This document shows positions 13,454 through 63,300 of a DNA stretch of 64,000 nt, piece after piece. Below the pieces are notes generated by a model. The model searched no databases, was not told where the DNA came from, and was given only the letters and a program-made list of their open reading frames with translations. The stretch lies in NCBI GenBank assembly GCA_965205215.1, contig OZ242041.1:928001-992000 (forward strand), read 5' to 3'. This stretch comes from Nitrosopumilus sp. (lineage in GTDB: Archaea > Thermoproteota > Nitrososphaeria > Nitrososphaerales > Nitrosopumilaceae). The translations under genes and the position numbers were made by a program. How positions within the stretch are numbered: position 1 is the first letter of the stretch; every line of letters begins with the position of its first letter.

Positions 13454-13527
13454 GGGCCCGTAACTCAGCTTGGTAGAGTAACCGGCTCATAACCGGTGAG
13501 CCATGGGATCGAAGCCCTTCGGGCCCA
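13454..13527 (+). tRNA. tRNA with CAT anticodon, probably tRNA-Ile2 (Met not excluded); island integration site
   Basis: Acceptor GGGCCCG/CGGGCCC-A, D-stem ACTC/GAGT, anticodon arm ACCGG-CTCATAA-CCGGT; TTTTATA box ~25 bp upstream. Confidence 0.85.
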
Positions 13528-20160: not shown

Positions 20161-20211
20161 GGTACTGATGCGAATTCGTGACATGGCCACCAATCGGGGG
20201 GGGGGGGGGGG
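20161..20211. repeat. 22-bp motif arm C followed by G16 tract
   Basis: GGTACTGATGCGAATTCGTGAC-ATGGCCACCAATC-G16. Confidence 0.85.
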
Positions 20212-20693: not shown

Positions 20694-21065
20694 CCCCCCA
20701 CAGACGCCTTTTTGTCCGCGTGCTTTGAAAACCTACTGCATGCCAAGCCGACGGTCTAGACGGCCTGCACGCCCCCAGAACCGCACGCGGCAGAACAACA
20801 AAACTGCACAGTCCAAGACATCAGAAACGGCCTGACATTATGATCAAACTGTCAGGCTCCGCCATTTTTTCTGAAAACGTTCGTTTTCAGGGGGGTTTAG
20901 CTTTCGTGCCTGCATACGCGATGCAAACACGCAAACACCCCCCCCTTGCACGGTCAAAGATGCCCAAGGATTGCAATGTACACACAATGCAGGCACGAAT
21001 AACGCCATACGTGCGGCCGCAGGCAATGTTTCAATTATCCATACCTAATAGATCATTCGGCATCA

Positions 21066-21188
21066 GATACTGGTACGAATTTGTGACATGGCCATCTAAT
21101 CGGGGGGGGGGGGGGAGGGAAGGGCGGCGGCGGCGGCGGCGGGGCGCCCCGGTTTCTTATACCTATATCACGAATTCGCATCAGTACC
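21066..21188. repeat. 22-bp motif doublet D (GC-rich spacer with G14)
   Basis: GATACTGGTACGAATTTGTGAC ... ATCACGAATTCGCATCAGTACC; the right arm is a near-perfect inverse of arm C. Confidence 0.85.
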
Positions 21189-21230
21189 TTGTTCATAAAC
21201 GTTAATTATTGTCGCGCGGATAGACTGACC

Positions 21231-23611: not shown

Positions 23612-24871
23612 TTGGCACCAACATCCAGAACCGAAGTCAAGCGCAGAGCCGGAAGTAGCCGGCGGCGACTGCCATCTCGTGTCAAAAAATACATGATAGA
23701 GATCAGGGTCGGAGGGCAACAAAATGAGGTACTCAGGCATCTTGTCAAGGTCATAGAGAAAAACTTTGGCGCCAAAAGCAAGTTCAGGCACGTCCCCCAC
23801 GTCACCATAATAGGGACACTGAGTACATCAAACCAGAGAGATCTCATAAACACCGTGCGGAACGTGGCAAAAGATTATGATCTGGTGAGCTTTCGCCTTG
23901 TTGGTTTTGGCGAATTTTCGGGGCGCGCCATATACGCGCACGTCTGCCCGTCAGATGAATTGAGGGAGATGCGGCAGAAACTTGTCAAGAGTCTTGGCAG
24001 GTTCTGCGAGCTCAAAACATACGATATGAAGGAAGATTTCAAACCCCACGCCACCTTGTGCCTCGACACAGATCTACCAGAGAAAACAGAGGTCGGCATC
24101 AAGAGAAAGTTTGGCAAAATACTAGAATTTTTGGAGAGCTGGAAGCTGTTGGATCATAGACAGCACGCGTTACGGGTAAGCGTAATCGGCGAAAACCGGA
24201 AGATAGTATGCGAATATGATTTGATGCTCCGGAGAATGATCAGCAGGGATGAGGCGCTCAACAGGACGCTATTCAAAAAAACAATGTCGGCTTTTGAGAA
24301 GAGGATGAAAAGATCTGGCACAAATGCAGGAAAGCGTCTGAATTTCACAGACGAAAGCGAACACCTTGGAAGAGTTTTCGTACTTAGTGACCTGCATTTC
24401 GATCATACGAGCATCATAAGGCGCTGCAGGAGGCCATTCTCGTCCACCCAGCAGATGAACCGCATACTGGTCAACAACTGGAACGACAGGGTGAGGAAGG
24501 GCGACAGGGTGTATTACCTCGGCGACATGACACATGGAAGAGAAAGAAGATCCATCGACTTTTGGCTTTCAAAGCTGAACGGCGAGGTGCGCTTTATACG
24601 AGGAAGCCACGACACTGACGCCATTACAAGGGCGGAAGTGATAAAGGACAGATTTCCCATCAGATATGGCGGCTTCGAATTTCTTTTGATGCATGATCCT
24701 TACAGGCCGGTGTACTGGGACGGGTGGATCATACATGGAGACAAGTACAATAGCAACCCTGTTACATACCCACACATCAACAGAAGAAATAAGACGATCA
24801 ACGTTTGTTCCGAGTATACTGGATATGCCCCGATGAGTCTTGATGAGATCATCGCAAAGATTCCCAAATGA
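23612..24871 (+). CDS. 2H phosphoesterase fused to metallophosphoesterase (paralog; MPE partly degenerate)
   Basis: PHVTI, PHATL; SDLHFDH, GD, GSHD (N->S), HGDKY (H->Y). Confidence 0.8.
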   Translation: MAPTSRTEVKRRAGSSRRRLPSRVKKYMIEIRVGGQQNEVLRHLVKVIEKNFGAKSKFRHVPHVTIIGTLSTSNQRDLINTVRNVAKDYDLVSFRLVGFGEFSGRAIYAHVCPSDELREMRQKLVKSLGRFCELKTYDMKEDFKPHATLCLDTDLPEKTEVGIKRKFGKILEFLESWKLLDHRQHALRVSVIGENRKIVCEYDLMLRRMISRDEALNRTLFKKTMSAFEKRMKRSGTNAGKRLNFTDESEHLGRVFVLSDLHFDHTSIIRRCRRPFSSTQQMNRILVNNWNDRVRKGDRVYYLGDMTHGRERRSIDFWLSKLNGEVRFIRGSHDTDAITRAEVIKDRFPIRYGGFEFLLMHDPYRPVYWDGWIIHGDKYNSNPVTYPHINRRNKTINVCSEYTGYAPMSLDEIIAKIPK

Positions 24872-41811: not shown

Positions 41812-44644
41812 TTGGCAACAACAGAGCCCACGTTGAACGACAGACTGGCAAGCATCTTGGACAGGCGCAGCTGCTGGAGCGCACTGCCGGAACAAACTGA
41901 CGAATTGGAGGACGGCGGGCAGATCGACGTACTGATCAAGGAGCGCGGCTGGCCACACGTGATCATGGAATGCAAGATCGGCAAAAAGCCGGAGGATGTG
42001 GACAAGCGGTTTGACAACACATTCAAGGACAAGACGAAACCCGGCATAGTATTTGAGGTAAAGTATCCGGAATGGCTGCGCCGCGCCGGCGCCGGAAAAC
42101 TTGAGGATGCAACGCTCTGGTACTGCGTATGGTATAACAAGCATACTAGGTTTCCGAAGGACGGTTGGCTAGAAGGTACTGCATACGATCTCGCGACCGC
42201 CGTCCAGTATTCAAGAGAGTTCAAGGGGTATGCGGAGGGTGCAACGAAACTGCATGATGCGGTCATGGAAGCGGCATCCGCAATGAACGTACTGTCGAAG
42301 AAGATACAAAAAAGTATAAGCCACATAATGGAACAGGAGCGATCCATACAGACGCATGCCACTGCAGCCCTCGTGGTCGCGGGCGCGCTGAGGTTCCACG
42401 ATACTGCAGCAGAGTCGCACGATGTCGAGCTGATTGGCAGCATGCTGGACAGCGAGGGTTACATCAACACTGCAAAACTCGTACCCGCGTGGAAGGAGAT
42501 ACTGAAACACGACTACTATCCGATATTCTCATCGGCTCTGCAGATCATAAGCGAACTGCCGCAGGATACGGCCTCGAACATAGTCAGGCTGCTGCACCGC
42601 GCCAACGGCGATCTTGCGCGCATACACCTGAGCAACTCATCCGACCTGTACGGGCAGACATACCAGCAGATAATCTCCGACAGGAAGAAACTGGCCGCAT
42701 TCTATACGAGGCCGCCGTCGGCAGCCCTCTTGGCCGCCGTCTCCGTACCTGACAAATGGCGCGATTCCGAGTCGCTGCGGAATGTGCGCGTCGCGGACTT
42801 TGCATGCGGCACGGGCACGCTGCTACACACCGTCTACAGGCAGCTTGCGGCCAATTATGAGATCGCCTCCGGGCAGCCCATGGCCTCCATGCATTCGCAC
42901 ATGATGGCCAACTGCCTGATTGGCGCCGACGTGCTGCCGATTGCAACCCACCTGACGGCCGCCGTACTGTCAAACACGTATCCAAGGCAGCCGTACGAGC
43001 AGACCCGCATATTCCAGCCCCGGCAGGGGACAACAGACCACAAGATAGGCTCGCTTGAGTGGATAACCGAGAGCGCCAAATTGGATGAGAGCGAGACCCA
43101 TCTTACCGGCGTTGGCGAGCAGGGCACGAGCACGCCGCCGGCGCACGGCTCGTGCCACGTCGTAATCATGAATCCCCCGTATTCCCGCTCGCAGGGACCT
43201 GGGGGACGTACCGGTTCAGGCAGTGATGTCGACGGGGGGGGGGGGAGACCCGGTTCAGTTGTTCACGGCGTTTGGCGCCACCGACAAAGACCGAAGAAAG
43301 ATGGGGGAACGCGCGACCGAGCTGTTCAGGCCGCCGACAAAGACCGTAACCAGAAGGACATACTGCGCGGACAAGCGCGCAGGCCTGGGCACGTTCTTCA
43401 TGGATTTGGCGCACGCCAAGCTCGGGAAGGGCGGGAGCCTGGGCCTCGTCCTGCCGATGACTGCCGCAACCGGCGTAAACTGGAGAAAGTTCCGCAGCAT
43501 CATTGAAACCGAATATACGGATGTGATAGTATTCAGCGGGAGGTTCTCTGCCGACACCGGCATGAAGGAGATCATCATATCGGCCAAGAAACTCAGGGAA
43601 GACGAGGCACCGTCCGGACGCGGGGTGTTCGTGTCCCTGGACAGGCAAATTGACACCATACTGGAGGGTGTCTGCATAGGAAAGGCGGTACGCAATCTAT
43701 CCATGCTGTCGCTTGAGGATGCCATGCAGGGGAGCACGCGCATACTGGTGGGCGATGACGAGATGGGTTCTGCACTCGACTGCCCGTTGCAGGACGGATG
43801 GCATACCGTGGACGCGGCGGACTTTACGCTGCACCAGATCGTGCAGCATTTGAGGCAGGGCAAGCTGTACCTGCCGTACATGTCGTCCCTGCTTGACCTC
43901 GCCACCACCACCATGTCTGAAATTGCGGACGTGGGTCCCTCTGATCTTCAGATTCTCGGAGGCGAGGCCCAGCCGGGAAGGACCACAAGCTATTCCGGAC
44001 CGTTCAACCTGCGTGATTATAATCCACGCAGCACATACTCGACGCTTTGGAGTAACCACAACAAAACCCAGCAGCAGATGATAGTAAGGCCGGACCATAC
44101 ACTGGAGCCGCGTAAAAACTGCAATGTCGACAGCATAAAGAGACTCTGGAGAACCAGATCGAACATACACATGAACGTCACTACCGACACCACGTCCCAG
44201 GCACTGATGATGTCCTATACGAAGAAACCCGTGGTCGGCGGAAGAGCGTGGCCGAGTGTCATCACAAAGAGGAAATACGCCAAGGGGCTTGCTGTCTGGT
44301 GCAATTCAACACTCGGCATACTGTGCAGGTGGGCAATGTCAAACCACCAGCAGGTAGGCAGGAGTACGACATCACGCACCGCCCTGAAGGACCTGCTCGT
44401 TCTGGCGCCGTCCGGACTTGCATTGCTTGGCGAGGTGTTTGACGAGTTTGCCGAAAAGAAGTTTGACCGCATAATGAACCTCTGGAAGGACCCGGTGCGC
44501 ATTGACATGGACACGCATATGCTAAACCGGCTTGGCGTCGGAGGTGTTGACTTGGATGACTTGCGCGTGCGCCTGTGCGCAGAACCATCCATGCATGGAA
44601 GAAGACAGATCACCGAGTTGGAATCTGCACTGGCAGACAACTAA
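41812..44644 (+). pseudogene. type IIG-like restriction-modification fusion (nuclease-N6 MTase-TRD), frameshifted at G12 (43234-43245)
   Basis: IDV...MECK (PD-(D/E)xK), FYT, DFACGTGTL, NPPY; continues in the 43223-44644 frame; G11 or G14 would fuse the frames. Confidence 0.8.
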
Positions 44645-46424: not shown

Positions 46425-46508
46425 ATGGCAAAAGCCAGTAAAGGATCAGCCGGATGGCCTAGTAAGACCGGCAATCCCTCCGGAAAGGGGAGGGACAACA
46501 ACAACTAG
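46425..46508 (+). CDS. 27-aa microprotein MAKASKGSAGWPSKTGNPSGKGRDNNN
   Basis: Resembles the WPSxTGNPSGGGRxN small-protein motif (from recollection, unverified). Confidence 0.55.
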   Translation: MAKASKGSAGWPSKTGNPSGKGRDNNN

Positions 46509-46811
46509 CAGGGTGCTTTTATCCCCCCCCGTAAGGGGGGCACCCTTTCCAGCAATCAACCTCATGCCATCTGCGATCACGCCTAGCCCGTGCCTGACTC
46601 TACTCAAGTATGTAATTCCCAAAATATTTGAGACTGTTTGAAAGGTGGTGTGGCATGCAGGAGGGCCAATCTGCCCTACTTTTCAGGACGGCCACCGGTT
46701 ACCGGCGGCGGCAAAGGCAGGTCCCCGTTTTGACAGCGGATTACAGGTCACCAGTTCTTGACAACACCCGCCCACGCGACGAGTTATATAGCTGTAAGTG
46801 GTGTTTAAACC

Positions 46812-47307: not shown

Positions 47308-49177
47308 TTGACTCCTATTGCAACCTTGAAATGGCATTTTCCGCCGACCGTGGGTGGGCCAGAGCAGGGGTTCAACGACAGTGGCAAGGAATTCTTTACG
47401 GCGGGCATTCTGGAGCACGTCGTACGGGAGATCATCCAGAACTCGCTTGACGCAAAGGATCCACGGCATCCGGACAAGCCGGTAGTTGTGAGAATGAGTA
47501 AGATCGAACTGGAGCGCAGCGCGATCAACGCCAGTTCCCTCGCAAGGCACGTGGCAGAATCGTTGAAGTCCACCCGGGAAAAGAATAATGAAAAGGGAGT
47601 CAGGGTTTACCAACGCGCACTGAAAATGCTGAAAAGCCGTAAGATACCGGTCCTAGTGGCCGTGGACGAGAACACCACAGGACTGAATGATACGCGCTGG
47701 GCCAGGCTAGTGCACGAGGAGGGCACGACAAGCAAGGACGGCCCCGCGGCGGGCGGAAGCTTTGGCATAGGCAAGAACGCCCCGTACGCAGCGTCCGCGC
47801 TCGGATTGGTGTGCTACTCGACGCATTTCCCGAGCAGGCACCGGACCGAGATGTTCATCGCCCGGTGCAAGCTCGTCTCACATGCGGATCCAGATGACAA
47901 AAACAGGCAGTTGCAGCACGTCGGCCTTGGAACGTCTGAGGATTTTGACGGGAGGCGGTACCCACCAGTCATGGGCCGCGAGATCCACGAGGCGTTCAGG
48001 CTGAAAAAAACGGGCACGGGCATATTCATAGTTGGGTTCAAGGTGGAGCGCGACTGGGAAAAGATCGTCGTGCGCTCCGTGGCACGCAACTTTTTTGCCG
48101 CCATACACGACAAAAAGCTGTCCGTCCAAGTCGGGGATTTTGAGATCACAAACGAGACGCTGAACGACTGCCTTGAAAAGGAGTCCCAGAAGGCGTACTA
48201 TGAACTGTACAGAAACTCCGAGCAGCCGATCGCCGTTGGTGGTGGGGGGGGGGGGGTGGAACTTTTGCCTGAAGATCGCCACCGGCGACGAAAAGATGGG
48301 GAACAGCGTCGCATACGTAAACCGTCGCGGAATGCTGATCACCGCCAAAAAGGGGTTCACCGAGAACCCGTTCAGTGTGCGAATTGACATAGGCAGGTAT
48401 GTCGCGGTCGTCTGGGCCGCCGACGACGACACGGACGCGCGGATTAGGGAGATGGAACCGCCGACCCACGAGTCAATAGAATACAGGCGCATAGAGGAGT
48501 CGGATCGGCGCAAAAAGATAAGCGGCCGGCTCCAAGACGTGTCGAACGAGATCCGCGAACACATCAGGAAGAAGCTGGACCTCGAGACGTTTGATCAAAG
48601 GATGGAGCTCAGAGAGCTGTCGGACATCATACCGTACGTGTCCGATCCGGACAAGGACAACAAGAACGAAGACGATGGAACGAGCAGCCAGCCGAACCAG
48701 CAGATAGGAGTCCGGACTATACAGACCGGGAAGGGGATCATGCAGGCGGACGAGGTGGAAGAAGGGAGTGATGAGGAAACAAAACCGTCAGACGGCAAGG
48801 GTGGCGGGGGAGGCAGACCGCCAGACGACCCACCACCACCCAAGACGAAAAAGACCGCATCCAACATGAAAAACGTCCGTGTGGTGCGCCATGGCGCGGG
48901 GAAGCTCCGCGTGGCGTTCGACACGAAGACGGGCGCCAGCAAGTTCGTGATCAAACCCGCTGGGGAGGAGTACAAGGACGAGGCGCCGATCACCGTTGCG
49001 GCCACCGCGGGCGTGTCGGGCACCGGTGAAGTCGAGATACTGGACAAGAATACGATACGCGTGAACGCCAAACCCTGCTCGCGCGTGGTGCTGGACGTGT
49101 CGCCGGACGGACTGTCTGAATATACCGGCTACACCATACTGGAATACAGGGCTCGGAGGAGAAAGATTTCCAAATGA
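47308..49177 (+). pseudogene. GHKL (HATPase-like) ATPase, frameshifted at G13 (48244-48256)
   Basis: REIIQNSLDA, D.NTTGL, GGSFGIGK; continues in the 48173-49177 frame; G12 restores one ORF. Confidence 0.75.
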
Positions 49178-50007
49178 ACACCATACTCTTGCCTCACCCC
49201 GTACTGCGTCCCGACGGTACAGACTACCGGACGGGCCTGGGGTTCAACATGTCGCTGACTGGCGAGCCCAAATACACGCTGGACGACAAGATACTGGTGC
49301 CGGTGCGGTTTGACCTGGAGAGCAGGTTCGTACGGGGACTGATACGCGGCGGAAAGGCCCGCATAATCGTGGTCGTAAAGTGCTCCCGCACGTACGAGCG
49401 TATGACGCTTGACGTGGACGTCACAGAAACCACACTGAAGCTCCCACTCGCCCGCTACGCGGACAAGATCAGACTTTTGCCGTACGTGTCCGCCACGGAA
49501 TCCATAGAGCGGTTCAAGTCGCCGGAGCACCACGCCGAGTTCTCCGACGTCGAGATCAATCTGCCCGCAGGCGCCATACTAGCCCGGGGCTCCGACACAG
49601 AACTCACGATAGATGCGTTGCAGACCCTGAGCGCCGCGATACAATTGGTGCCCGACGACAGACTCGAGGACGGGCAGTACGTCATTGATGTCGGGGGCGA
49701 CTACATACAGATATACATGAACGCGAAGACCTGCCGCGGCGTCGATGCCCTGCGCAAGACCAACCGCGGCCTCCTGTACCCGTCAGTCTACATGACTGTC
49801 CTGACGCACGCCATACAGAACGTCACAGCGGATCGCACCAGAAAGTGGGAGGAGGCCCTCAGGAAGACGCTTGAGAAAAACAACATGTGGATTGACGATG
49901 AGAATGACCGGAAAAGCGAGGCGTACGTGCATGCACAAAAACTGCTAAAGCATCCGGTGAGGTTCATCACGGCGGAACCGGCAGGAGGGGCGGACGGCGA
50001 TGAGTAA
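49174..50007 (+). CDS. hypothetical protein coupled to the GHKL ATPase
   Basis: N-terminal PHPVL...DY; ATGA overlap with upstream gene. Confidence 0.75.
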   Translation: MNTILLPHPVLRPDGTDYRTGLGFNMSLTGEPKYTLDDKILVPVRFDLESRFVRGLIRGGKARIIVVVKCSRTYERMTLDVDVTETTLKLPLARYADKIRLLPYVSATESIERFKSPEHHAEFSDVEINLPAGAILARGSDTELTIDALQTLSAAIQLVPDDRLEDGQYVIDVGGDYIQIYMNAKTCRGVDALRKTNRGLLYPSVYMTVLTHAIQNVTADRTRKWEEALRKTLEKNNMWIDDENDRKSEAYVHAQKLLKHPVRFITAEPAGGADGDE

Positions 50008-51613
50008 ACTGTACAAACTCACGCCGGGCGCGTTCCACTGGCTGAATGCCAACATAGGGCGCAACAAGGACATGTACGGCGACCCGGATGCCGACTTTGC
50101 CGGACTGCTGGAGCGGGCGGACATCCACGAGTACAGGAAGCCGACAGAAGTAGAGGTCAGGAGCGAGATGACCCTCAAGCCGCCCGAAACCGACGATCCG
50201 AAGAAGGCGCATTTTGCAGACCGCCAGGCCATGGAGTTCTACAAGTGCTTGGAGGGCATGACGCCCCGGCTGGCCTCTGACCCGGAGATCTGGGCTTACG
50301 TGAACCACTTCCATCTGCACGGATACGGGATCCTACGCTGGCCGTGGACAAGCGGCTCGCAGAAATCACACATCCGGATGCACTGGCTCACAGCCAGAAA
50401 CCAGAAGATCTACGAGTCCAGCATCTCGGGCCGTACGTGGTGGATGGTTCACGTGGCGACCAAGGCGGCCGAGGCGTCCAACGGGGCATTCACCGCCGAG
50501 CAGGCGCTCAGACTGTTCGCGGACCATCCGGAATACTACCACCGGAGTATGCAGTACGAAGTGCTCCGCAACCCGATGATACTGGCCGAATGCGTCAGAT
50601 CGCTGCTCACGGACGCCAAGGGAATCAGCCGTGACGGATACGTGCAGATTGCCCGCGAGATAAACCGCGAGGCGGGCGCCAGATTACTGGACTCGGTCAG
50701 GCAGCCCGACGTGCGCAGGCTCGTGAGGAGGTCGTCCGACAGGCTCATGCGCATGCCGGAGTTCGTTCCGGACAGGAGGAACCTCAAGGGCGTAAGGACG
50801 TACAAGGTGCTCAGCCTCGGAGCGGGTACGCAATCGACTGTGATGGCCCTCATGGCCGAGGAGGGGTGGGGCGGCCTAGAGAAACCAGACATCGCCATAT
50901 TTGCCGACACTCAGTGGGAGCCGCCGCATGTCTACGAGCATCTCAAGTGGCTCGAAAAGCAGTTGTCATACGAGGTGGTGCGTGTCACCGCCGGGAACAT
51001 ACGAGAAAACGTGCTCGCCGGCGTGACTCCTGACGGAAACCACTTTCTGGACATGCCGGTATTCCTGACAAACAGGGACGGCACCAAGTCGGTGGCCGCA
51101 AGGCAGTGCACGAACCATTACAAGATAACGCCAATACACCAAGAACTACGACGGCAGTTGAAACTGGAGCCCGGCAGGCGCGCCCCCAAAAACTTGCAAG
51201 TCGAGATGTGGATGGGCATAAGCATGGACGAGTCCCATCGCATGAAGCCGAGCCGCGATGAGTGGATAACCAATAGGTTTCCGCTAGTCGACATGAACCT
51301 CACCAGGGCGCAACTCTACGACTGGTTCGCGGAGAGGCATCCGGGGCGCGAACTACCGCGAAGCGCGTGCGTCGGGTGTCCGTACCATACCAACATGGAA
51401 TGGAAGTGGCTCAAGGAGAACGACCCCAAGTCATTCCGGGACGCGGTGTTTATAGACAGGGCAATACGCGAGGTGCCGCAGATAAAGGGCACGTTGCGCG
51501 GCGAAGGATATCTGCACCGCGAAAGAATGGAGCTGGACAGTATAGACTTCAGCGCGGTTGACGATTATGAGGACTATATGGCAAGCGAATGCGAGGGACT
51601 CTGCGGTGTCTGA
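50000..51613 (+). CDS. DUF6339-like domain fused to PP-loop/PAPS-reductase-like Fe-S domain
   Basis: N: TPRLAS..IW.Y..H...Y...RW..HW..RTWW; C: LSLGAGTQS, FADTQWE, RQCT..YK, GIS.DE..R, SACVGCPYH, ECEGLCG. Confidence 0.7.
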   Translation: MSKLYKLTPGAFHWLNANIGRNKDMYGDPDADFAGLLERADIHEYRKPTEVEVRSEMTLKPPETDDPKKAHFADRQAMEFYKCLEGMTPRLASDPEIWAYVNHFHLHGYGILRWPWTSGSQKSHIRMHWLTARNQKIYESSISGRTWWMVHVATKAAEASNGAFTAEQALRLFADHPEYYHRSMQYEVLRNPMILAECVRSLLTDAKGISRDGYVQIAREINREAGARLLDSVRQPDVRRLVRRSSDRLMRMPEFVPDRRNLKGVRTYKVLSLGAGTQSTVMALMAEEGWGGLEKPDIAIFADTQWEPPHVYEHLKWLEKQLSYEVVRVTAGNIRENVLAGVTPDGNHFLDMPVFLTNRDGTKSVAARQCTNHYKITPIHQELRRQLKLEPGRRAPKNLQVEMWMGISMDESHRMKPSRDEWITNRFPLVDMNLTRAQLYDWFAERHPGRELPRSACVGCPYHTNMEWKWLKENDPKSFRDAVFIDRAIREVPQIKGTLRGEGYLHRERMELDSIDFSAVDDYEDYMASECEGLCGV

Positions 51614-51935
51614 CATAGTTTCGCGGCTCTCGGACCGCCCGGTTCCATTTGGGCGCATGTCCTACGAACACGTTGACGAGTCGCCCGGACTCTACTGCTT
51701 CTGGGTCCGCGGCGCGTGCCTGTACGTCGGCATGAGCATGAACCTGAGGAGGCGCCTGAGGGAGCACTGCGAGGCGGAGGACAACGTGCAGCTCGCCGAA
51801 TACTTTGAAGCGTACGGTTCGGAGATCGGGGCGGTGACTGTATATCATGACGCCCCCGAGGCGCGCCTGCGCGAGCTGGAGTCGGAGGCGATAAGAAGGA
51901 TGCGCCCGCTGACAAACAGACAGGGGGCACCATGA
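51606..51935 (+). CDS. GIY-YIG nuclease
   Basis: PGLY...LYVGMS.NLRRRL.EH...E...N. Confidence 0.75.
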   Translation: MSDIVSRLSDRPVPFGRMSYEHVDESPGLYCFWVRGACLYVGMSMNLRRRLREHCEAEDNVQLAEYFEAYGSEIGAVTVYHDAPEARLRELESEAIRRMRPLTNRQGAP

Positions 51936-53146
51936 CTACCACGTATCCCGCGCTACGCGCAAGGTTCGGAACCACCGCGTACTACGTGGTGACCATGCGG
52001 GTCTCAGAACTGGTGGGCAGGATACAGTTCCCAGCGAAGCTGCCCGAGTGGGAGGATCTCTCGATTGAGGGGCAGTTTCAGAGAAAATTGGACGTCGGCC
52101 GCATCCGACGCCAGATGGCGCCATACTTTGCGACCGATGAGAGGAGATTCTCAGGCTCGCTTGTGGTGGCCGTGCAGGGGCTGACAGGGAAGGAGTTTGA
52201 GAGCATACGCGACATCACAACGAAACCACTTCCCGCCGCATACGGCACAGCCGCCAGTGACCTCGGGTTCCTGACACTCGACAGCCAGAAGCTCATTCCA
52301 CTCGACGGCCAGCACCGCGCCAAGGCGTTTCAGTTGGCTCTGGAGGAGGGGGACTCAGGGCTTGCTAACGATGGGATCTCCGTGATAATAATGGATTTTG
52401 AGAAGTCGCTCTCGAGGTATATCTTCAACAAGATCAACAAGTACGCTAGGCCGACATCAAAGGCAGGCAAACTGATAACCGACGACGACGACGCCATGGC
52501 GGTCATTACGCGCGGCCTGATAACGGATGAAATAATCCCAAGAAGGCTGGTCAACTTGGAGTCTAACTCACTGAACAAGAACGCGCACCACTTTACGCTG
52601 ATCTCCACGCTGTATGACGCCAGCAAGTCCCTGCTGTCCGTCATGCCGGTCAGGGTCGTGGGCAGATCGGAGGACATGGACCGGAAGGAGAGGGAGAGAA
52701 ACCAGAAGGAGATTGCCAAGGAATGGACCCGGTTGCTCTCTGGCATATCCGAGTGGAGAAGGGCGCTGGAAAATCCGGACAAAAAAGGGGACAATTACAG
52801 AATAAAGATGCGCCAAAAGTCTATCTTGGGAAGGCCAATAGGCCAACTGGCGCTGGTAAGGGGGTATGCGTACGCATATGGCAACACGGAGAACGCTGAC
52901 AAGGACGCGATAGTGGGCAAACTGGACAAGATAGACTGGGGCATTAAAAATGACACGTGGAGGGGTTTGTTGGTGAGGCCCAACAGCCGTATGATGTACG
53001 GCTCCCGCGTGGCGACTACCGCGTCTAAAATGATAGCGCACCTTGTCGGCGTCAGTCTTCCCAAGAACGTACAGGAACAGCTCCTTGACTCAATCCACGG
53101 GGCCGCCCGATCCCCCCGCAGAAAACTTCCAAAGCCCGTGGGCTAG
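51932..53146 (+). CDS. DGQHR-domain (DndB-like, ParB superfamily) protein
   Basis: FQR.LD..RI....Y, RF..SLVV, LDGQHR, IF..IN. Confidence 0.85.
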   Translation: MTTTYPALRARFGTTAYYVVTMRVSELVGRIQFPAKLPEWEDLSIEGQFQRKLDVGRIRRQMAPYFATDERRFSGSLVVAVQGLTGKEFESIRDITTKPLPAAYGTAASDLGFLTLDSQKLIPLDGQHRAKAFQLALEEGDSGLANDGISVIIMDFEKSLSRYIFNKINKYARPTSKAGKLITDDDDAMAVITRGLITDEIIPRRLVNLESNSLNKNAHHFTLISTLYDASKSLLSVMPVRVVGRSEDMDRKERERNQKEIAKEWTRLLSGISEWRRALENPDKKGDNYRIKMRQKSILGRPIGQLALVRGYAYAYGNTENADKDAIVGKLDKIDWGIKNDTWRGLLVRPNSRMMYGSRVATTASKMIAHLVGVSLPKNVQEQLLDSIHGAARSPRRKLPKPVG

Positions 53147-53471: not shown

Positions 53472-53618
53472 GCCCTTCGGGCCCATTCCACTCTTTTTCG
53501 AGTTGTTTTTGACTCGATCTTTGCCGCCTGATTCTGTGCCCGTCAACATGCAGATTCGGGGGAAAGTGAGATTTAACCCTGCTGGTTGGGATCGAGCTAC
53601 TTTCGGGCTCGAACTCTG
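53472..53618 (+). repeat. attR-like direct repeat
   Basis: Matches 13514-13660. Confidence 0.9.
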
Positions 53619-54319: not shown

Positions 54320-57300
54320 ATGAGGCGGCGGCCTGCGCGGGCCCTGTGCCTTGCGGTAGCAGTAGTAGCAGCAGCGGCAGCGGTAGCCCTTGTGCCGGAG
54401 GTGCTCGCGGAGCCCGCCCTTGCGCAGACGGATCTGACCCTGACTCCGGCAGGAAACATCCAAGACGCCGGCGATCTCCTGCTTGACAGCCCGCACCACG
54501 TCAAGACCCTTGTGGCCTCCGGCAACACGTACGCCGCGGTGGCCGCGCAGGGTGACAAAGGCGCCCAGATAATCCGGATCACCACCGCCGGCACCTCTGC
54601 CAACATCCCCCCGACTGTAGACGCAGGGAACGCCCAGACCGCAGACGGGGGCGACACGGTAACGCTGGCCGGCACCGTCACGGACCCCGACACCGGTGAC
54701 AGCCATACGTACGCGTGGAGTGTAAGCCCCGCAACCCCCGCCATTACGATGACCAACCATACCTCGCTTACGACCACCTTCACGGCCCCCGAGGTCTCGT
54801 CTGGCACCGAGTTCATATTCGTCCTCACGGTAAACGACGGCACCGTGAACGCGACGGACACCGTCACAGTCACCGTCCGGGGCAGCGCCGCCGACACAAT
54901 CCCCGGGCACGCCTTTGTCACCACCTGGACCACCACTGCCGCCAACCAGCAGATAACGCTGCCCGTCAGCGGGTCCGGCATCATAATCGACTGGGGCGAC
55001 GGCACCCCAGACGATACCGGCGTCAACGGCGCGATCGCCCACACATACGAGGACGCCGGCACGTACACGGTCTCTGTAACCGGCGGCCTCGAGCGGTTCA
55101 ACCTGAACAACGGCGCCAGCCGTACCAGCCTGGCCTCAATCGAGCAGTGGGGCAACAGCTCGTGGACGGACATGAACGGCGCCTTTTATGGCGCCAGCAA
55201 CATGGCATACAACGCCGCGGACTCCCCCGACCTGTCCCGCGTCACCGGTATGTTCAACATGTTCCGCGGCGCCGCCGCCTTTGACGGCGACATATCCGGC
55301 TGGGAAGTCTCGTCGGTAACCGACATGTCCCACATGTTCCGCGGCGCCGCCGCCTTTGACGGCGACATATCCGGCTGGGACGTCTCCGCCGTCACCTCCT
55401 TGAACTCCATGTTCCGCGGCGCCGCCGCCTTTGACGGCGACATATCCGGCTGGGACGTCTCCTCCGTCCTACGCATGAACAAAGTGTTCTCCGGCGCCGC
55501 CTCCTTTGACCAGCCCCTCAACGGCTGGGACGTCTCGCGCGTCACCGACATGTCATCCATGTTCTCCGGCGCCGCCTCCTTTGATCAGCCCCTCGACAGA
55601 TGGGACGTCTCGTCCGTCACCCGCATGTCATCCATGTTCTCCGGCGCCGCCTCCTTTGACCAGAACCTCGGAAAATGGTACGTCACCCCGGGAACCGCAG
55701 ACTTTGACGCCTCCGGCTCCTCGCTCAACGTCACTATAATAACCGCGCAGAACCGGCCGCTGCGCGACCACAGCCCCGCCTACGCCATAGGGACCGGCGG
55801 CGACTCGGGACTCTTTGAGATCGTACGGGGATCCGACACGCTGGCCTTCAAGAGTGCCCCGACCGCCAACAGGGACTACGCGGTCAACGTGACCGCTACC
55901 GGCAGCACCGTCTTTGAGGGTGGCAACAACCACATGACGGTCACCGTGACCGTCTCCGGCGCGTCCGCCGGGATGGCAGTCGACGCCGGAGACGCCCAGG
56001 CCGCAGACGAGGGTGACACGGTCACGCTGACAGGAACCGTGCAGAACGCGGGCGGCTCCGCCACGTACGCGTGGACGGTGAGCCCCGCCACCCCCGCCAT
56101 TGCCATAAACAACGCCGACGCGCTCTCGGCCACCTTCGCGGCGCCCGAGGTCACGACGGACACCGAGTTCGTATTCGCGCTCACTGTAACAGATGGCACC
56201 GACACCGCGACGGACACCGTTACGGTCACCGTAAGCCACGTCAACAAGGCTCCGACGGCGTACGCGGGGCACGACCAGACCGTCGCGCAGGGAGCCACCG
56301 TGCAGCTTGACGGTTCGGGCTCGTCTGATCCGGACGGCGACGACCTCGACTACCGCTGGAGCTCGGTCGGGAATGTTGTCACGCTCACAGACAGAACCAC
56401 CGCAACCCCGACGTTCACGGCCCCCTCCTCTGCCTCAACATTCGTCATCTCCCTTACCGTCGTCGACGACGGGAACCTCTTCGACATGGACAACATCACG
56501 ATAACCGTCCCCGCTCTCCCAGTTGCCAAGGACTTGGTTACGGCCACCGTCCGGGGCAGCGCCGCCAGCACAATCCCCGGGCACGCCTTTGCCACCACCT
56601 GGACCACCACTGCCGCCAACCAGCAGATAACGCTGCCCGTCAGCGGTACGGGCATCACCATAAACTGGGGCGACGGCACCGCCGACAGCACCGGCGTCTC
56701 CGGCCCGACCGACCACACATACAAGGTCGCCGGCACGTACACGGTCTCTGTAACCGGCGGCCTCGAGCGGTTCAACCTGGACAACGGCGCCAACAGAACC
56801 AGCCTGGCCTCAATCGAGCAGTGGGGCAACAGCTCGTGGACCACCATGAACGGCGCCTTTCATGGCGCCAGCAACATGGCATACAACGCCGCGGACTCCC
56901 CCGACCTGTCCCGCGTCACCGACATGACCGACATGTTCCGCGGCGCCACCTCCTTCAACGGCGACATATCCGGCTGGGCCACCTCGCGCGTCACCGACAT
57001 GACCGGCATGTTCTATGGCGCCACCTCCTTTGACCAGCCCCTCGACAGCTGGGACGTCTCGCGCGTCACCTCCATGAGCAACATGTTCCGCGGCGCCTCC
57101 TCCTTTGACCAGCCCCTCGACAGCTGGGACACCTCGCGCGTCACCGCCATGATCAACATGTTCCGCGGCGCCTCCTCCTTTGACCAGCCCCTCGACAGCT
57201 GGGACGTCTCGCGCGTCACCAACACGCACGCCATGTTCCGCGATGCCACCTCCTTTAACCAGGACATATCCGGCTGGGACGTCTCGCGCGTCACCGCCAT

Positions 57301-60300
57301 GAGCGACATGTTCCGCGGCGCCGCCGCTTTCGACCAGAATCTGGGGCCCTGGTATGTGACCCCGGGAACCGCCGCGTTTGACGCCTCCGGCAGCTCGCTC
57401 AACGTCACTATAATAACCGCGCAGAACCGGCCGCTGCGCGACCACAGCCCCGCCTACGCCATAGGGACCGGCGGCGACTCGCACCTGTTCCAGATTATAC
57501 AGGGGTCCGACACGCTGGCCTTCAAGGGCACGCCGGCCCGCAATGGCGATTACCGGGTCAACATTACCGCCACCGGCACCAACGTGTTTGAGGACGGCAA
57601 CAACCACAGGACGGTCACCGTGGCCAGCTTCCTGCCATCCCACGCCTTTGTCACCACCTGGACCACCACCTCAGCCGGCCAGCAGATAACGCTGCCCGTC
57701 AGCGGTACGGGCATCACAATAAACTGGGGCGACGGCACCGCCGTCACCGGCGCGACCTCCCACACGTACGCGGCCGCCGGCACGTACACGGTCTCTGTAA
57801 CCGGCGGCCTCGAGCGGTTCAACCTGGACAACGGCGCCAACAGAACCAGCCTGGCCTCAATCGAGCAGTGGGGCAACAGCTCGTGGACGGACATGAACGG
57901 CGCCTTTTATGGCGCCAGCAACATGGTATACAACGCCACCGACTCCCCCGACCTGTCCCGCGTCACCGACATGACCGACATGTTCCGCGGCGCCACCTCC
58001 TTCAACGGCGACATATCCGGCTGGGCCACCTCGCGCGTCACCGACATGACCGGCATGTTCTATGGCGCCTCCTCCTTTGACCAGCCCCTCGACAGCTGGG
58101 ACGTCTCGCGCGTCACCTCCATGAGCAGCATGTTCCGCGGCGCCTCCTCCTTTAACCAGCCCCTCGACAGCTGGGACGTCTTGTCAGTGACCACCATGGA
58201 CTCCATGTTCTCCGGCGCCTCCTCCTTTAACCAGCCCCTCAACGGCTGGAACGTCGCCGCCGTCACCCGCATGGCCGGTATGTTCAATACCGCCACCTCC
58301 TTTAACCAGCCCCTCGACTCCTGGGATGTCTCGTCCGTCACCACCATGACCGGTATGTTCAATACCGCCACCTCCTTTAACCAGCCCCTCAACGATTGGG
58401 ACGTCTCCTCCGTCACCGACATGTCCACCACGTTCGATACCGCCACCTCCTTTGACCAGCCCCTCGACAGCTGGGACGTATCGCGCGTCACCAACATGCG
58501 CACCATGTTCTACGGCGCCTCCTCCTTTGACCAAGACATATCCGGCTGGGACGTCTCGCGCGTCACCAACATGGACGAAATGTTCGACGGCGCCGCCGCC
58601 TTCGACCAGAATCTGGGGCCCTGGTATGTGACCCCGGGAACCGCAGACTTTGATGCCTCCGGCTCCTCGTTCAACGTCACCGACATAACCGCGCAGAACC
58701 GGCCGCTGCGCGACCACAGCCCCGCCTACGCCATAGGGACCGGCGGCGACTCGCACCTGTTCCAGATTATACAGGGGTCCGACACGCTGGCCTTCAAGGG
58801 CACGCCGGCCCACAGCGGCGATTACCGGGTCAACATTACCGCCACCGGCACCAACGTGTTTGAGGACGGCAACAACCACAGGACGGTCACCGTGGCCAGC
58901 TCCCCGCCATCCCACGCCTTTGTCACCACCTGGACCACCACCTCAGCCGGCCAGCAGATAACGCTGCCCGTCAGCGGTACGGGCATCACAATAAACTGGG
59001 GCGACGGCACCGCCGTCACCGGCGCGACCTCCCACACGTACGCGGCCGCCGGCACGTACACGGTCTCTGTAACCGGCGGCCTCGAGCGGTTCAACCTGGA
59101 CAACGGCGCCAACAGAACCAGCCTGGCCTCAATCGAGCAGTGGGGCAACAGCTCGTGGACGGACATGAACGGCGCCTTTTATGGCGCCAGCAACATGGCA
59201 TACAACGCCGCGGACTCCCCCGACCTGTCCCGCGTCACCGACATGACCGACATGTTCCGCGGCGCCACCTCCTTCAACGGCGACATATCCGGCTGGGCCA
59301 CCTCGCGCGTCACCGACATGACCGGCATGTTCTATGGCGCCACCTCCTTTGACCAGCCCCTCGACAGCTGGGACACCTCGCGCGTCACCTCCATGAGCAA
59401 CATGTTCCGCGGCGCCTCCTCCTTTGACCAGCCCCTCGACAGCTGGGACACCTCGCGCGTCACCGCCATGATCAACATGTTCCGCGGCGCCTCCTCCTTT
59501 GACCAGCCCCTCGACAGCTGGGACGTCTCGCGCGTCACCAACACGCACGCCATGTTCCGCGATGCCACCTCCTTTAACCAGGACATATCCGGCTGGGACG
59601 TCTCGCGCGTCACCGCCATGAGCGACATGTTCCGCGGCGCCGCCGCTTTCGACCAGAATCTGGGGCCCTGGTATGTGACCCCGGGAACCGCCGCGTTTGA
59701 CGCCTCCGGCAGCTCGCTCAACGTCACTATAATAACCGCGCAGAACCGGCCGCTGCGCGACCACAGCCCCGCCTACGCCATAGGGACCGGCGGCGACTCG
59801 CACCTGTTCCAGATTATACAGGGGTCCGACACGCTGGCCTTCAAGGGCACGCCGGCCCGCAATGGCGATTACCGGGTCAACATTACCGCCACCGGCACCA
59901 ACGTGTTTGAGGACGGCAACAACCACAGGACGGTCACCGTCACCGTCACCGGCGTGGCCGGCGCCCCGCCATCCCACGCCTTTGTCACCACCTGGACCAC
60001 CACCTCAGCCGGCCAGCAGATAACGCTGCCCGTCAGCGGTACGGGCATCACAATAAACTGGGGCGACGGCACCGCCGTCACCGGCGCGACCTCCCACACG
60101 TACGCGGCCGCCGGCACGTACACGGTCTCTGTAACCGGCGGCCTCGAGCGGTTCAACCTGGACAACGGCGCCAACAGAACCAGCCTGGCCTCAATCGAGC
60201 AGTGGGGCAACAGCTCGTGGACGGACATGAACGGCGCTTTTCATGGCGCCAGCAACATGGCATACAACGCCACCGACTCCCCCGACCTGTCCCGCGTCAC

Positions 60301-63300
60301 CGACATGACCGACATGTTCCGCGGCGCCACCTCCTTCAACGGCGACATATCCGGCTGGGCCACCTCGCGCGTCACCGACATGACCGGCATGTTCTATGGC
60401 GCCACCTCCTTTGACCAGCCCCTCGACAGCTGGGACGTCTCGCGCGTCACCTCCATGAGCAACATGTTCCGCGGCGCCTCCTCCTTTGACCAGCCCCTCG
60501 ACAGCTGGGACACCTCGCGCGTCACCGCCATGATCAACATGTTCCGCGGCGCCTCCTCCTTTGACCAGCCCCTCGACAGCTGGGACGTCTCGCGCGTCAC
60601 CAACACGCACGCCATGTTCCACGGCGCCGCCTCCTTCAACGGCGACATATCCGGCTGGGACACCTCGCGCGTCACCGGCATGAGCGCCATGTTCCGCGAT
60701 GCCACCTCCTTTAACCAGGACATATCCGGCTGGGACGTCTCGCGCGTCACCGCCATGAGCGACATGTTCCGCGGCGCCGCCGCTTTCGACCAGAATCTGG
60801 GGCCCTGGTATGTGACCCCGGGAACCGCAGACTTTGATGCCTCCGGCTCCTCGTTCAACGTCACCGACATAACCGCGCAGAACCGGCCGCTGCGCGACCA
60901 CAGCCCCGCCTACGCCATAGGGACCGGCGGCGACTCGCACCTGTTCCAGATTATACAGGGGTCCGACACGCTGGCCTTCAAGGGCACGCCGGCCCGCAAT
61001 GGCGATTACCGGGTCAACATTACCGCCACCGGCACCAACGTGTTTGAGGACGGCAACAACCACAGGACGGTCACCGTCACCGTCACCGGCGTGGCCGGCG
61101 CCCCGCCATCCCACGCCTTTGTCACCACCTGGACCACCACCTCAGCCGGCCAGCAGATAACGCTGCCCGTCAGCGGTACGGGCATCACAATAAACTGGGG
61201 CGACGGCACTCCCGCCAGCACCGGCGTCACCGGCGCGACCTCCCACACGTACGCGGCCGCCGGCACGTACACGGTCTCTGTAACCGGCGGCCTCGAGCGG
61301 TTCAACCTGGACAACGGCGCCAACAGAACCAGCCTGGCCTCAATCGAGCAGTGGGGCAACAGCTCGTGGACGGACATGAACGGCGCCTTTTATGGCGCCA
61401 GCAACATGGCATACAACGCCGCGGACTCCCCCGACCTGTCCCGCGTCACCGACATGACCGACATGTTCCGCGGCGCCACCTCCTTCAACGGCGACATATC
61501 CGGCTGGGGCGTCTCCTCCGTCACCAACATGGCCAACATGTTCCGCGGCGCCGCCTCCTTCAACGGCGACATATCCGGCTGGGACACCTCGCGCGTCACC
61601 GGCATGAGCGCCATGTTCAACGGCGCCACCTCCTTTGACCAGCCCCTCAACGGCTGGGACACCTCGCGCGTCACCGGCATGTCATTCATGTTCTCCGGCG
61701 CCACCTCCTTTGACCAGCCCCTCAACGGCTGGGACACCTCGCGCGTCACCGGCATGAGCGCCATGTTCAACGGCGCCACCTCCTTTGACCAGCCCCTCAA
61801 CGGCTGGGACACCTCGCGCGTCACCAACACGGGCGCCATGTTCCGCGGCGCCACCTCCTTCAACGGCGACATATCAGGCTGGGACGTCTCGCGCGTCACT
61901 TTCATGACATCCATGTTCTCCGGCGCTGCCTCCTTCAACCAGCCCCTCAACGGCTGGGACGTCTCGCGCGTCACCAACATGCCTGACATGTTCCGCGGCG
62001 CTGCCTCCTTCAACCAGCCCCTCAACGACTGGGACGTCTCGCGCGTCACTGTCATGTCATCCATGTTCTCCGGCGCCGCCGCATTCAACGGCAACATATC
62101 CGGCTGGGACGTCTCATCCGTCACCGGCACCAACATGAACGGCATGTTCCGCGGCGCCGCCTCCTTCAATGTCGACATATCCGGCTGGGACGTCTCGCGC
62201 GTCACCGGCATGTCATCCATGTTCTCGGGCGCCTCCTCCTTTGACCAGCCCCTGAACTCTTGGAACGTCTCGTCCGTCACCGACATGTCATCCATGTTCT
62301 CGGGCGCCTCCTCCTTTGACCAGCCCCTCAACGGCTGGGACACCTCGCGCGTCACCCGCATGTCATCCATGTTCAACGGCGCCTCCTCCTTTGACCAGCC
62401 CCTCGACAGATGGGACGTCTCGTCCGTCACCCGCATGTCATCCATGTTCAACGGCGCCACCTCCTTTGACCAGAACCTGGGGCCCTGGTATGTGACCCCG
62501 GGAACCGCAGACTTTGATGCCTCCGGCTCCTCGTTCAACGTCACCGACATAACCGCGCAGAACCGGCCGCTGCGCGACCACAGCCCCGCCTACGGGATAG
62601 GGACCGGCGGTGACTCGCACCTGTTCCGGATTATACAGGGGTCCGACACGCTGGCCTACAGGTGCACTCCGACCGGTGACGGCCCGCACCGGGTCAACGT
62701 GACCGCCACCGGCCGCAACGTCTTTGAGGACGGCAACAACTGGAGGATGGTCAACGTGACCTTCTCCGGCGCGTCCGACGCCCTGGCAGTCGACGCCGGA
62801 ACAGCCCGGGCCGTAGACGAGGGCGCCTCGGTCACACTGGCGGGAATGGTGCAGAACGAGAGCTGCTTCGCCACGTACAAGTGGAACCAGACCTCCCCCT
62901 CGACCCCGGCCATACCCATAACCGACAGCGATACGCTCGCCGCCTCCTTCACGGCCCCTCAGGTCACGTCGGACACCCCGTTCACGTTCACGCTCACCGT
63001 AACGGACGGCTCCGTCACCAAGAGCGACACCGTTGTAATCACCGTCCGGGACTCGACGCCCGCAAACAGCGCGCCCATCGCCAACGCGGGGCCCGACCAG
63101 ACGGTAGACGAGAGGGGGGCCGTGGAACTCGACGGCTCGCGCTCGTCGGACCCCGACGGTGACCCCATCACGTACACCTGGACCCAGACGGCGGGCACCC
63201 CCACGGTATCGCTCTCCAACACCACCGCGCAGCGCCCCACTTTCACGGCCCCCGAGGTCACGTCGGACGCCGTCCTCACCTTTACGCTTGCCGTATCCGA

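Follow-up and report, generated by a model that had tools for sequence, protein, structure and literature searches.

What can stand in for a cytosine methylase in an operon whose relatives encode one? The question is posed by five genes (A–E) at 47308–53146 of a 64,000-nucleotide (nt) stretch of Nitrosopumilus sp. DNA (assembly GCA_965205215.1, contig OZ242041.1, 928,001–992,000 of the forward strand; hereafter the window), part of a genome of one contig (2,098,239 bp, GC 60.3%, archaeal rRNA). All five genes lie on the + strand with overlapping stops and starts (A/B by 4 nt, B/C by 8 nt, C/D by about 47–56 nt and D/E by 4 nt), a layout that an earlier note had described and that open reading frame (ORF) coordinates and family matches confirm. 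The first three genes contain a trio already catalogued as a candidate defence system, and to the third is fused a domain related to the DNA-modifying protein SspD. On balance, and by a little more than an even call, we favour the reading that this is a composite, phase-variable defence operon of restriction–modification (RM) type, in which the SspD-like enzyme would supply the self-mark, probably a sulfur one.

Occupant of the methylase position

The trio of gene A, gene B and the DUF6339 domain of gene C is candidate PDC-M33 of PADLOC; what is new is the exchange of its modifier and the addition of a further module. The operon had been taken as possibly unlike any described system, and this holds for the modifier swap and the added genes D and E, not for the trio. 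Gene A (47308–49177, + strand) encodes a GHKL (+S5-like) ATPase in two frames (47308–48387 and 48173–49177) that meet at a G13 homopolymer (48244–48256, + strand) encoding a run of Gly. Its first piece matches the PADLOC profile PDLC04582 (PDC-M33A) at 5.7e-67 over profile positions 3–304, its second at 4.2e-16 over positions 319–596. Because G13 splits the gene, the hypothetical protein that the earlier note had placed after the GHKL frame is in part the 3′ half of gene A; gene B is the true hypothetical. The ATP-binding residues E41, N45, D48, D120, G125 and G150-S-x-G-x-G-K156 are kept in at least 90% of 38 homologues, and since the HATPase models of Pfam give no match at E ≤ 0.1, the GHKL class of gene A rests on these motifs and the PADLOC profile. 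An E-x-x-x-H motif (REMEPPTHES) is kept in 40 sequences, 9 of them canonical; passages of Iyer, Abhiman and Aravind (2008, PMC2292703) give such a motif after the ATPase domain as a mark of paraMORC2. By this motif only, gene A would be paraMORC2-like.

Gene B (49174–50007, + strand; PDC-M33B, PADLOC 1.3e-30) is modelled by AlphaFold 2 (AF2) with a predicted local distance difference test score (pLDDT) of 89.1, as an N-terminal β-sandwich followed by a C-terminal helical domain. No enzyme fold emerges from its structure matches, which are generic β-sandwiches of fibronectin type III or immunoglobulin-like type (Z at most 7.8), no catalytic motif is found among its conserved residues, and the Atlas search returns only clusters named 'hypothetical protein'. 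Gene C (50000–51613, + strand) encodes 537 residues in two domains and is modelled at a pLDDT of 88.4. Its N-terminal domain (50000–50764, + strand) is all-helical and matches DUF6339 over residues 3–248 (PF19866, 1.4e-18; PDC-M33C, PDLC04586, 6e-17). Searched with the whole gene C model, Foldseek finds no match in the PDB at E ≤ 0.001, and a wide structure search of the PDB gives DUF6339 two short helical matches only (residues 190–252, Z 6.3–6.6). No nuclease domain is recognised in A, B or DUF6339, a point taken up below.

A complex prediction of B with residues 1–255 of C returns an interface score (ipSAE) of 0.84 (runs 0.83, 0.84 and 0.85; best of 3 controls 0.00), with contacts that agree by at least 91% between runs and a partner pLDDT of at least 90. 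In calibration, 116 of 157 solved complexes and 2 of 215 mismatched pairs attained the ipSAE mark, counts that are only approximate here because we used our own alignments. The predicted interface (residues 63–78 and 131–135 of B, 88–94 and 226–237 of C) holds conserved residues of both sides (T73 and R76 of B; T88, P89, G226 and L229 of C), and the prediction supports a partnership in which B would bind the DUF6339 domain.

Both the fusion and its neighbourhood are conserved elsewhere, as the earlier note had needed them to be. Searching with gene C gives 785 proteins at E ≤ 1e-3; among the best 120, 116 are 533–567 residues long, and the nearest named homologues come from metagenome-assembled genomes (MAGs) of Thaumarchaeota, Nitrosopumilaceae and Cenarchaeum. 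A survey of one genome per species yielded 589 confirmed matches to the enzyme family, fused and stand-alone together, from which 80 loci were kept and sorted by tblastn with the window proteins: 41 carry the full fusion and 39 the enzyme alone (~280 residues). A and B stand directly upstream of the fusion in 41 of the 41 fusion loci, which belong to archaea and to MAGs labelled Dehalococcoidia, Caldilineaceae, Arenicellales and Acidimicrobiia. Closer to home the gene is patchy and mobile, since the full-length fusion occurs in 8 of 150 other genomes of the same family and in none of 8 of the same genus. One Caldilineaceae genome (G003, which holds locus L013) has three separate full-length DUF6339 fusion genes, with frames of 541–554 residues.

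The canonical form of the trio was surveyed in 80 metagenome loci retrieved with stand-alone DUF6339 proteins. Where at least 2800 nt lie upstream (38 loci), A and B are always present; where at least 3750 nt do (36 loci), a C5 methylase accompanies them on the same strand in 35. Named replicons show the same layout: a proteobacterial genome has a C5 methylase (PF00145, 1.7e-63) followed by proteins of 624 and 278 residues and DUF6339, and a Planococcus plasmid has Vsr, a cytosine methylase, a 77-residue gene, proteins of 619 and 282 residues and DUF6339. The view in the earlier note, that GHKL, a hypothetical protein and DUF6339 usually accompany a cytosine methylase, was thus sound. Gene order, sizes and overlaps in the window agree with those of the 38 canonical loci, the A, B and C profiles being adjacent and co-oriented, but the window operon has no methylase upstream, its gene C is ~290 residues longer by the SspD-like Fe–S domain, and GIY-YIG and DndB-family genes follow.

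The absence of the methylase is general. By tblastn, a C5 methylase has no match in the 80 loci that carry the PAPS-reductase-fold enzyme (PAPS, 3′-phosphoadenosine-5′-phosphosulfate) and none in the window; the sole Dcm-like gene of the genome lies at ~614 kb. Among 132 flanking ORFs of 32 loci, Pfam finds no DNA-methylase family, and only three generic matches to methyltransferases of small-molecule type. The PAPS-reductase-fold domain and the cytosine methylase are mutually exclusive partners of A–B–DUF6339, which bears out the suggestion that the PP-loop domain occupies the methylase slot and is our main argument for this domain as the modification half of an RM-like system.

By other routes DUF6339 was seldom met. 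A search for short relatives of the fusion gave 8 proteins only; among 400 other Pseudomonadota genomes the Pfam model matches in 1, among 14 control genomes in none, and a plasmid collection contributes one match. Among longer DUF6339 proteins (310–528 residues; 11 of 13 tested) there is no second Pfam domain and no other fusion partner.

The SspD-like domain and the modules it heads

The C-terminal domain of gene C (50765–51613, + strand) matches SspD at 1.3e-15 in PADLOC and the 'PAPS reductase' profile phrog_424 at 1.7e-45, both within residues 269–487; over the same residues PF01507 scores 19 bits, under its cut-off of 22.5. The PADLOC scan of gene C returns SspD and PDC-M33C only. Residues 258–537 of the AF2 model take the PP-loop/adenine-nucleotide-hydrolase fold, with PAPS reductase 7rge_A as best structural match (Z 11.4, root-mean-square deviation 4.5, 167 aligned residues), after which the matches level off near Z 10, with MesJ, NcsA, Fe–S LarE and adenosine 5′-phosphosulfate (APS) reductases among them. 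Foldseek E-values for the domain are weak, and the gene C sequence profile finds no PDB chain at E ≤ 0.1, the two matches below E = 1 being noise.

Profile comparison is sharper. With hhalign the domain aligns to SspD at 98.7% (E 1.9e-16, 214 columns) and to DndC at 22.9% (E 9e-4, 129 columns), and gene C has no NCBIfam match to DndC (TIGR03183) at E ≤ 0.1. By these profiles the domain is a clear relative of SspD and not of DndC type, which refines the comparison with DndC/SspD in the earlier note. We rejected gene C as a housekeeping CysH on its subthreshold PF01507 score, the genome's own CysH elsewhere scoring 168 bits; the domain and CysH do share their fold (7rge_A), their loop type and a C-terminal E-C-x-G motif.

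The motifs that had marked the PP-loop as one of another type (SLGAGTQS, QC, CxxC and a C-terminal CxGxC) are all present and invariant in 22 homologues at 49–80% identity, where they read SLGAG-x-QST, FADT-x-WEPP, RQCT, SAC-x-GCPY and ECEG-x-C; the loop SLG[AG]G[TV]QS is invariant in this set and in a second of 19. Five cysteines are conserved: C370, C457 and C460, which are placed as Fe–S ligands, and the dyad C531/C535 of the C-terminal ECEGLCGV. We aligned the window domain and 7 relatives with 8 DndC, 8 SspD and the genome's own CysH. All four groups have the DT motif, R-x-C-T..K..P (CC in CysH) and CxxC. The nucleotide loop is SGG[KR]DS in DndC and SspD (8 of 8 each), SSFGAEDA in CysH and SLG[AG]G[TV]QS in the window domain and its relatives, and the C-terminal ends are a CxxC pair in SspD, ECGIH in CysH and ECEG-x-CG in the gene C family. 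Passages of PMC10853773 give three cluster cysteines and a cysteine pair as features of a DndC-type sulfur carrier. The cysteines of the family match those expected of a DndC/SspD-type sulfur carrier, and its chemistry may differ from phosphorothioation.

Downstream, gene D (51567–51935, + strand) encodes a small putative GIY-YIG nuclease. Its frame is open from 51558, and the ATG at 51567 agrees with the starts of homologues. It scores 22.5 bits against PF01541 (1.4e-4; cut-off 22.6), its homologue in L008 scores 26.6, and NCBIfam adds matches of Cho/UvrC type. GLY, YVG, R66, H70, E74, N76, E108 and N120 are kept in 14 of 14 sequences, so that the GIY-YIG motif and the catalytic Arg, Glu and Asn are all in place. 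Gene E (51932–53146, + strand) is a DndB-family DGQHR protein of the ParB/Srx superfamily (PF14072, 2e-36, 126 bits against a cut-off of 29.1; TIGR03187, 4e-31, 108.7 bits against 58.85), with D125-G-Q-H-R129 kept in 20 homologues. Against the DndB equivalog TIGR03233 it scores 95.9 bits, below the cut-off of 328, and we therefore class it as a member of the DndB family, not as the orthologue of the Dnd system.

Gene E was rejected as the DndB of a Dnd system on this equivalog score, and on the 378 bits of a canonical DndB compared with its own 126. That canonical DndB belongs to the same genome: dndB (378 bits), dndC (509 residues, SGGKDS loop) and dndD (485 bits) lie on the minus strand at genome positions 856,947–861,510, ~115 kb from the operon, with DndB at 860.5–861.5 kb and the only DndD match of the genome at 856,947–858,944. 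The DndC of this cluster (L185) aligns with the DndC set. Judged from these genes, the archaeon probably phosphorothioates its DNA already by the classical route, and gene E is a divergent paralogue of the canonical DndB. The statement that no dndA, dndD or dndE is visible thus holds for the window and fails for the genome, which has dndB, dndC and dndD. The operon is without a DndD match in Pfam, PADLOC and NCBIfam scans, in which DndE was not searched by a model of its own.

Where the enzyme stands alone it heads other modules. In 24 of the 39 lone loci it is followed by a superfamily 2 helicase (ResIII/DEAD), a GHKL protein (HATPase_c_3, MzaB-like) and a phospholipase D (PLD) nuclease. This set spans several bacterial phyla (L042, L044–L046, L049, L050, L053, L055, L056, L058, L061, L062, L065–L067, L070–L074, L076 and L079–L081), and no DNA-methylase family stands beside it in the 12 of its loci whose flanks were scanned; the same layout with a methylase is given as MORC-type RM in passages of PMC2292703 (2008). 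Another 12 of the 39 continue with GIY-YIG and/or DndB, and 3 have no conserved neighbour. Since 12 lone loci carry the enzyme with GIY-YIG and/or DndB, genes D and E form a module with the enzyme in its own right; the earlier pairing of GIY-YIG with GHKL as one restriction arm is weakened, for GIY-YIG and DndB make their own three-gene module with the enzyme in these 12 other loci.

The fusion loci differ in what follows. D and then E stand behind the fusion in all 8 archaeal loci, bar one ended by the end of its contig. In bacteria a GmrSD/DUF262-type gene (PADLOC HEC-05/06, Orf5, SspE-like) stands there in at least 13 of 33, PbeA/PbeC-like genes are nearby in five and the helicase–GHKL–PLD set in four. 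By analogy, a DUF262–DUF1524 protein (ParB-like NTPase plus nuclease) may be equivalent to DndB and GIY-YIG as split genes. Phages also carry the enzyme: 48 records hold homologues at 30–43% identity, 28 of them Mycobacterium prophages or phages, as solo genes within replication and recombination modules.

How far do these contexts constrain the role of the domain? The locus might be a defence system in which the domain is an effector or sensor and not a DNA marker, acting in tRNA thiolation or in the sensing or consumption of a nucleotide (ATP, APS/PAPS), with A–B as trigger and GIY-YIG/DndB as nuclease effector in the manner of abortive infection. Such a role would suit the structural neighbours at Z 9–10.4, a plateau that takes in NcsA, TtuA, MesJ/TilS, ThiI, LarE and PAPS/APS reductases, as well as a PP-loop that is CysH-like and not of the DndC/SspD ATP-pyrophosphatase type, and an operon without desulfurase, P-loop ATPase or DNA-recognition partner; nucleotide-degrading roles are also raised, in passages of PMC10853773, for ParB-family proteins such as DndB. 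We nevertheless consider it unlikely. The domain swaps one for one with a DNA cytosine methylase in an otherwise unchanged A–B–DUF6339 operon, it heads three nuclease or helicase modules at the place of RM modification genes, its phage copies sit among replication genes, and its closest profile relative is the DNA-modifying SspD.

The operon could also be two joined systems, an enzyme–GIY-YIG–DndB module and a methylase-less remnant of PDC-M33, fused without functional coupling. The 12 loci that have the former without A–B–DUF6339 point that way, as do the 29 of 33 bacterial A–B-fusion loci without an E-like match and the helicase–GHKL–PLD set behind the fusion in L012, L028, L029 and L034. 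Yet the fusion is kept at full length across archaea and several bacterial phyla at 40–80% identity, a methylase for A–B–DUF6339 is absent from all 41 fusion loci, B is predicted to bind the DUF6339 of the fusion, and stop/start overlaps connect all five genes. We hold an uncoupled pair to be distinctly improbable.

Poly-G and poly-C tracts

The tract in gene A had been counted as G12; it is G13. Gene A would be in frame at G12 or G9, and G13 shifts the frame by one. The homologue in L002 (69% identical) keeps its frame here with G12, and its gene A is intact at 633 residues. Contigs from two sequencing runs of the same study (X2 and X3, perhaps from the source sample) have the identical G13, and a 93–94% identical relative from another study (X1, a contig labelled sponge metagenome, at depth 6) is 5 letters shorter and also out of frame. 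Within the population a single tract length is present, as judged from contigs.

Similar tracts recur across the genome, which has 62 G/C runs of 10 nt or more; their lengths peak at 12 and reach 17. The window contains six runs of at least 12 nt, starting at 20196, 21102, 31262, 43234, 48244 and 54246. On the + strand, tracts are G from ~0.48 to 1.48 Mb and C elsewhere, with two switches half a genome apart, and many are placed where long ORFs begin or bridge two frames. Together they look like a contingency-locus repertoire in an archaeon.

Gene A is a favoured place for such tracts. The 80 loci contain 27 G/C runs of 9 nt or more, and 13 of these lie within gene A or no more than 300 nt upstream of it, a region that makes up 7.0% of the sequence (binomial p = 7e-9, a value that overstates independence because the loci are related to one another). 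Their sites vary. Three archaeal loci have the tract at codon ~16, the window and L002 have it in the middle of the gene, and two Arenicellales loci have it between the boxes for ATP binding; in Caldilineaceae it precedes A, and in one locus it falls at the A/B junction. A tract lies inside gene A in 9 assemblies; it is in frame in L002 only and out of frame in the other 8. Since the same defence gene carries tracts in unrelated phyla, on/off switching of the system may be under selection, and we read the tracts as convergent contingency switching of the ATPase arm, which would be reversible. Many of the organisms that bear them belong to what we take to be sponge-symbiont lineages.

Tracts also occur in the lone enzyme–GIY-YIG–DndB loci of Dehalococcoidia. 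Runs of G10–G14 lie inside the DndB-family gene in L048 (9489), L052 (9484) and L063 (9486), and the gene is broken at the tract in L048 and L052.

A proposed mechanism and its setting

How would the parts work together? We propose that the core is PDC-M33, made of the GHKL/paraMORC2-like ATPase A, a non-enzymatic β-sandwich adaptor B and DUF6339, and that the SspD-like domain replaces the C5 methylase and would mark DNA as self, most likely with a sulfur mark of phosphorothioate type. The fusion, together with the predicted binding of B to DUF6339, would keep the marking enzyme within the ATPase complex, as in RM enzymes of types I, III and IIG. Genes D and E would act as a ParB-like NTPase or sensor and a nuclease, a split counterpart of the single GmrSD/SspE-like gene, and might serve either as a nickase or restriction arm that is aware of the mark or as helpers that nick and scan for the modifier. 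Slippage in poly-G would switch the ATPase arm off and on while leaving the downstream genes intact, G13 here being the off state. The proposal draws on gene content, fold, motifs, conservation, the exclusion of the methylase and the recurrent tracts, as observed, and on a B–DUF6339 contact that is modelled.

Several findings weigh against it, beyond the relatedness of loci behind the binomial value and the lack of a recognised nuclease domain in A, B and DUF6339. The domain has lost the Lys and Asp of SGGKDS that all 8 DndC and 8 SspD keep, so that the ATP-pyrophosphatase reaction presumed in phosphorothioation might not hold for it; in the G-x-R-x-x-E motif, Ser takes the place of the conserved Arg. 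According to passages of PMC12914056, phosphorothioate synthesis needs a PAPS-reductase domain and an NTPase of DndD, SspC or BrxC type, and scans of the operon find no such P-loop ATPase, no cysteine desulfurase and no partner of DndE/SspB type. Gene E might serve dndBCD instead, because the genome already has that cluster. The DNA substrate, the sulfur chemistry and the restriction of unmarked DNA are steps that we infer, and PDC-M33 is itself a candidate only. Finally, the reading frame of gene A is broken in the window, in X1 and in L003, L004, L008, L019, L023, L036 and L038, which could mean decay or homopolymer miscalls in long-read assemblies.

Long homopolymer lengths are error-prone in such assemblies, and the split gene A, the out-of-frame X1 relative and the 8 of 9 out-of-frame assemblies would also fit a decaying, non-functional remnant in which G13 is a disabling mutation or an assembly error and not a switch, as would a search that found no RNA run covering the stretch; but we give this the least credence of the alternatives, since the other four genes are unbroken and keep every family-invariant residue, the sole defect of gene A is at the tract and one base from the in-frame G12 of L002, tracts of 10–14 nt are kept in A at various sites and in various phyla far over the background rate, the 62 genomic tracts peak at length 12 with no decaying tail, and the X2 and X3 contigs, though perhaps from the source sample, have the same G13.

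Set beside known systems, the phase-variable RM-like operon that we favour has partial kin. The SspABCD–SspE system offers homology to SspD, with similar size, the R-x-C-T Cys, CxxC and a C-terminal Cys pair, and a GmrSD/SspE-like gene often stands behind bacterial fusions; SspE (a DUF262 plus DUF1524 sensor-nuclease) may have a split analogue in DGQHR plus GIY-YIG. The operon differs from it by SLGAGTQS in place of SGGKDS, by a GHKL and not a P-loop ATPase and by the fusion to DUF6339, and its six ORFs give no PADLOC match to SspA, SspB, SspC or SspE at E ≤ 0.1. With DndABCDE it shares a DndB-family DGQHR protein and a PAPS-reductase-superfamily Fe–S enzyme whose cysteines are similar to those given in passages of PMC10853773, but the DndC match is weak (22.9%), gene E is below the DndB cut-off and the operon has no DndD. 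An identity as a Dnd or Ssp system was rejected, there being no DndC-type enzyme, DndD or SspA/B/C in the operon.

In the MORC/paraMORC systems, as passages of PMC2292703 describe them, GHKL proteins occur in operons with a cytosine methylase and Vsr, or with an SFII helicase and an HKD/PLD nuclease; the term 'PAPS reductase' is absent from that paper, and B and DUF6339 do not figure in those passages. BREX type 4 comes closest in its architecture: in passages of PMC12914056, BrxP is a PAPS-reductase-fold fusion in place of a methylase and makes phosphorothioate. Its fused domain is DUF4007 in contrast to DUF6339 here, and BrxC, BrxZ and BrxL are missing from the operon, grounds on which an identity as BREX type 4 was rejected. 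Full-text searches return no paper with 'DUF6339' or 'PDC-M33', and in searches for a PAPS reductase with DndB/GIY-YIG, with ParB or phage, or with MORC, no listing or passage, as distinct from supplementary tables, describes this arrangement.

A broader idea, which we put forward tentatively, as less likely than not but with a substantial chance of being right, is that the enzyme family is a portable DNA-marking cassette that makes either an undescribed non-methyl mark or phosphorothioate by a new, partner-independent route. Its product would be a sulfur-based mark of backbone or base, made without P-loop ATPase, desulfurase or DndE/SspB partners, and it would be plugged into at least three restriction machineries (paraMORC2–B–DUF6339, helicase–GHKL–PLD and GIY-YIG–DndB). 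Solo phage copies would then serve counter-defence, and the restriction arm would be switched by convergent poly-G/C tracts in host-associated microbes.

The operon comes last in a stretch whose GC content is uneven and which starts at a tRNA-Met (13454–13527). A direct repeat of the tRNA 3′ end and ~33 nt after it recurs at 53472–53518 on the + strand (17 nt exact, ~40 of 47 aligned columns identical), and past 53.5 kb the GC steps up to 0.64–0.70. These features suggest a probable integrated island of ~40 kb, with the repeats as a putative attL/attR pair and an end just after the operon. No recombinase was found as island integrase in the two ORFs tested against PDB sequences, and the genes adjoining the operon in the window are mostly without Pfam or PADLOC match.

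Other genes of the island have tracts of their own. A gene of ~940 residues (41812–44644) is broken by G12 (43234–43245) into ORFs of 564 and 473 residues; PADLOC profiles of type IIG restriction/methylase and other methylases match it weakly (best 4.9e-8), and in L036 and L054 its relatives lie close to the same defence systems. At 20840–23582 a G14 tract (21102–21115) lies between an ORF of 121 residues and one of 797, the latter combining a 2H phosphoesterase (2′-5′ RNA ligase-like) with a pair of AAA ATPase domains. Another gene with a 2H domain comes next, at 23612–24871, and a transposase and a MazE-like gene are further members of the island. The segment immediately before the operon is polymorphic or has an alternative form: at 46500–46760 the X2 and X3 contigs differ from the window by ten substitutions and have one base fewer in a C8 run (46523), and from 46740 on they equal it. 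Downstream of the island, five paralogous genes of ~215–280 residues and 65% GC occupy 55628–60940 on the minus strand, with no Pfam match in the four scanned.

To our knowledge, the insertion of sulfur into DNA is confined to the DndC, SspD and BrxP lineages, all of which depend on a P-loop ATPase partner. From its sequences, the SspD-like family described here is a candidate fourth lineage, and a widespread one (785 fusion matches, 589 genomic matches to the enzyme). Its placement at the methylase position, in three restriction contexts and in phages, makes the question of its mark testable with one small gene. PDC-M33/DUF6339, an orphan candidate of PADLOC, gains a working model as a paraMORC-type RM system with a predicted B–DUF6339 contact, set in an archaeal genome where long G tracts number in the dozens and several fall within defence genes.

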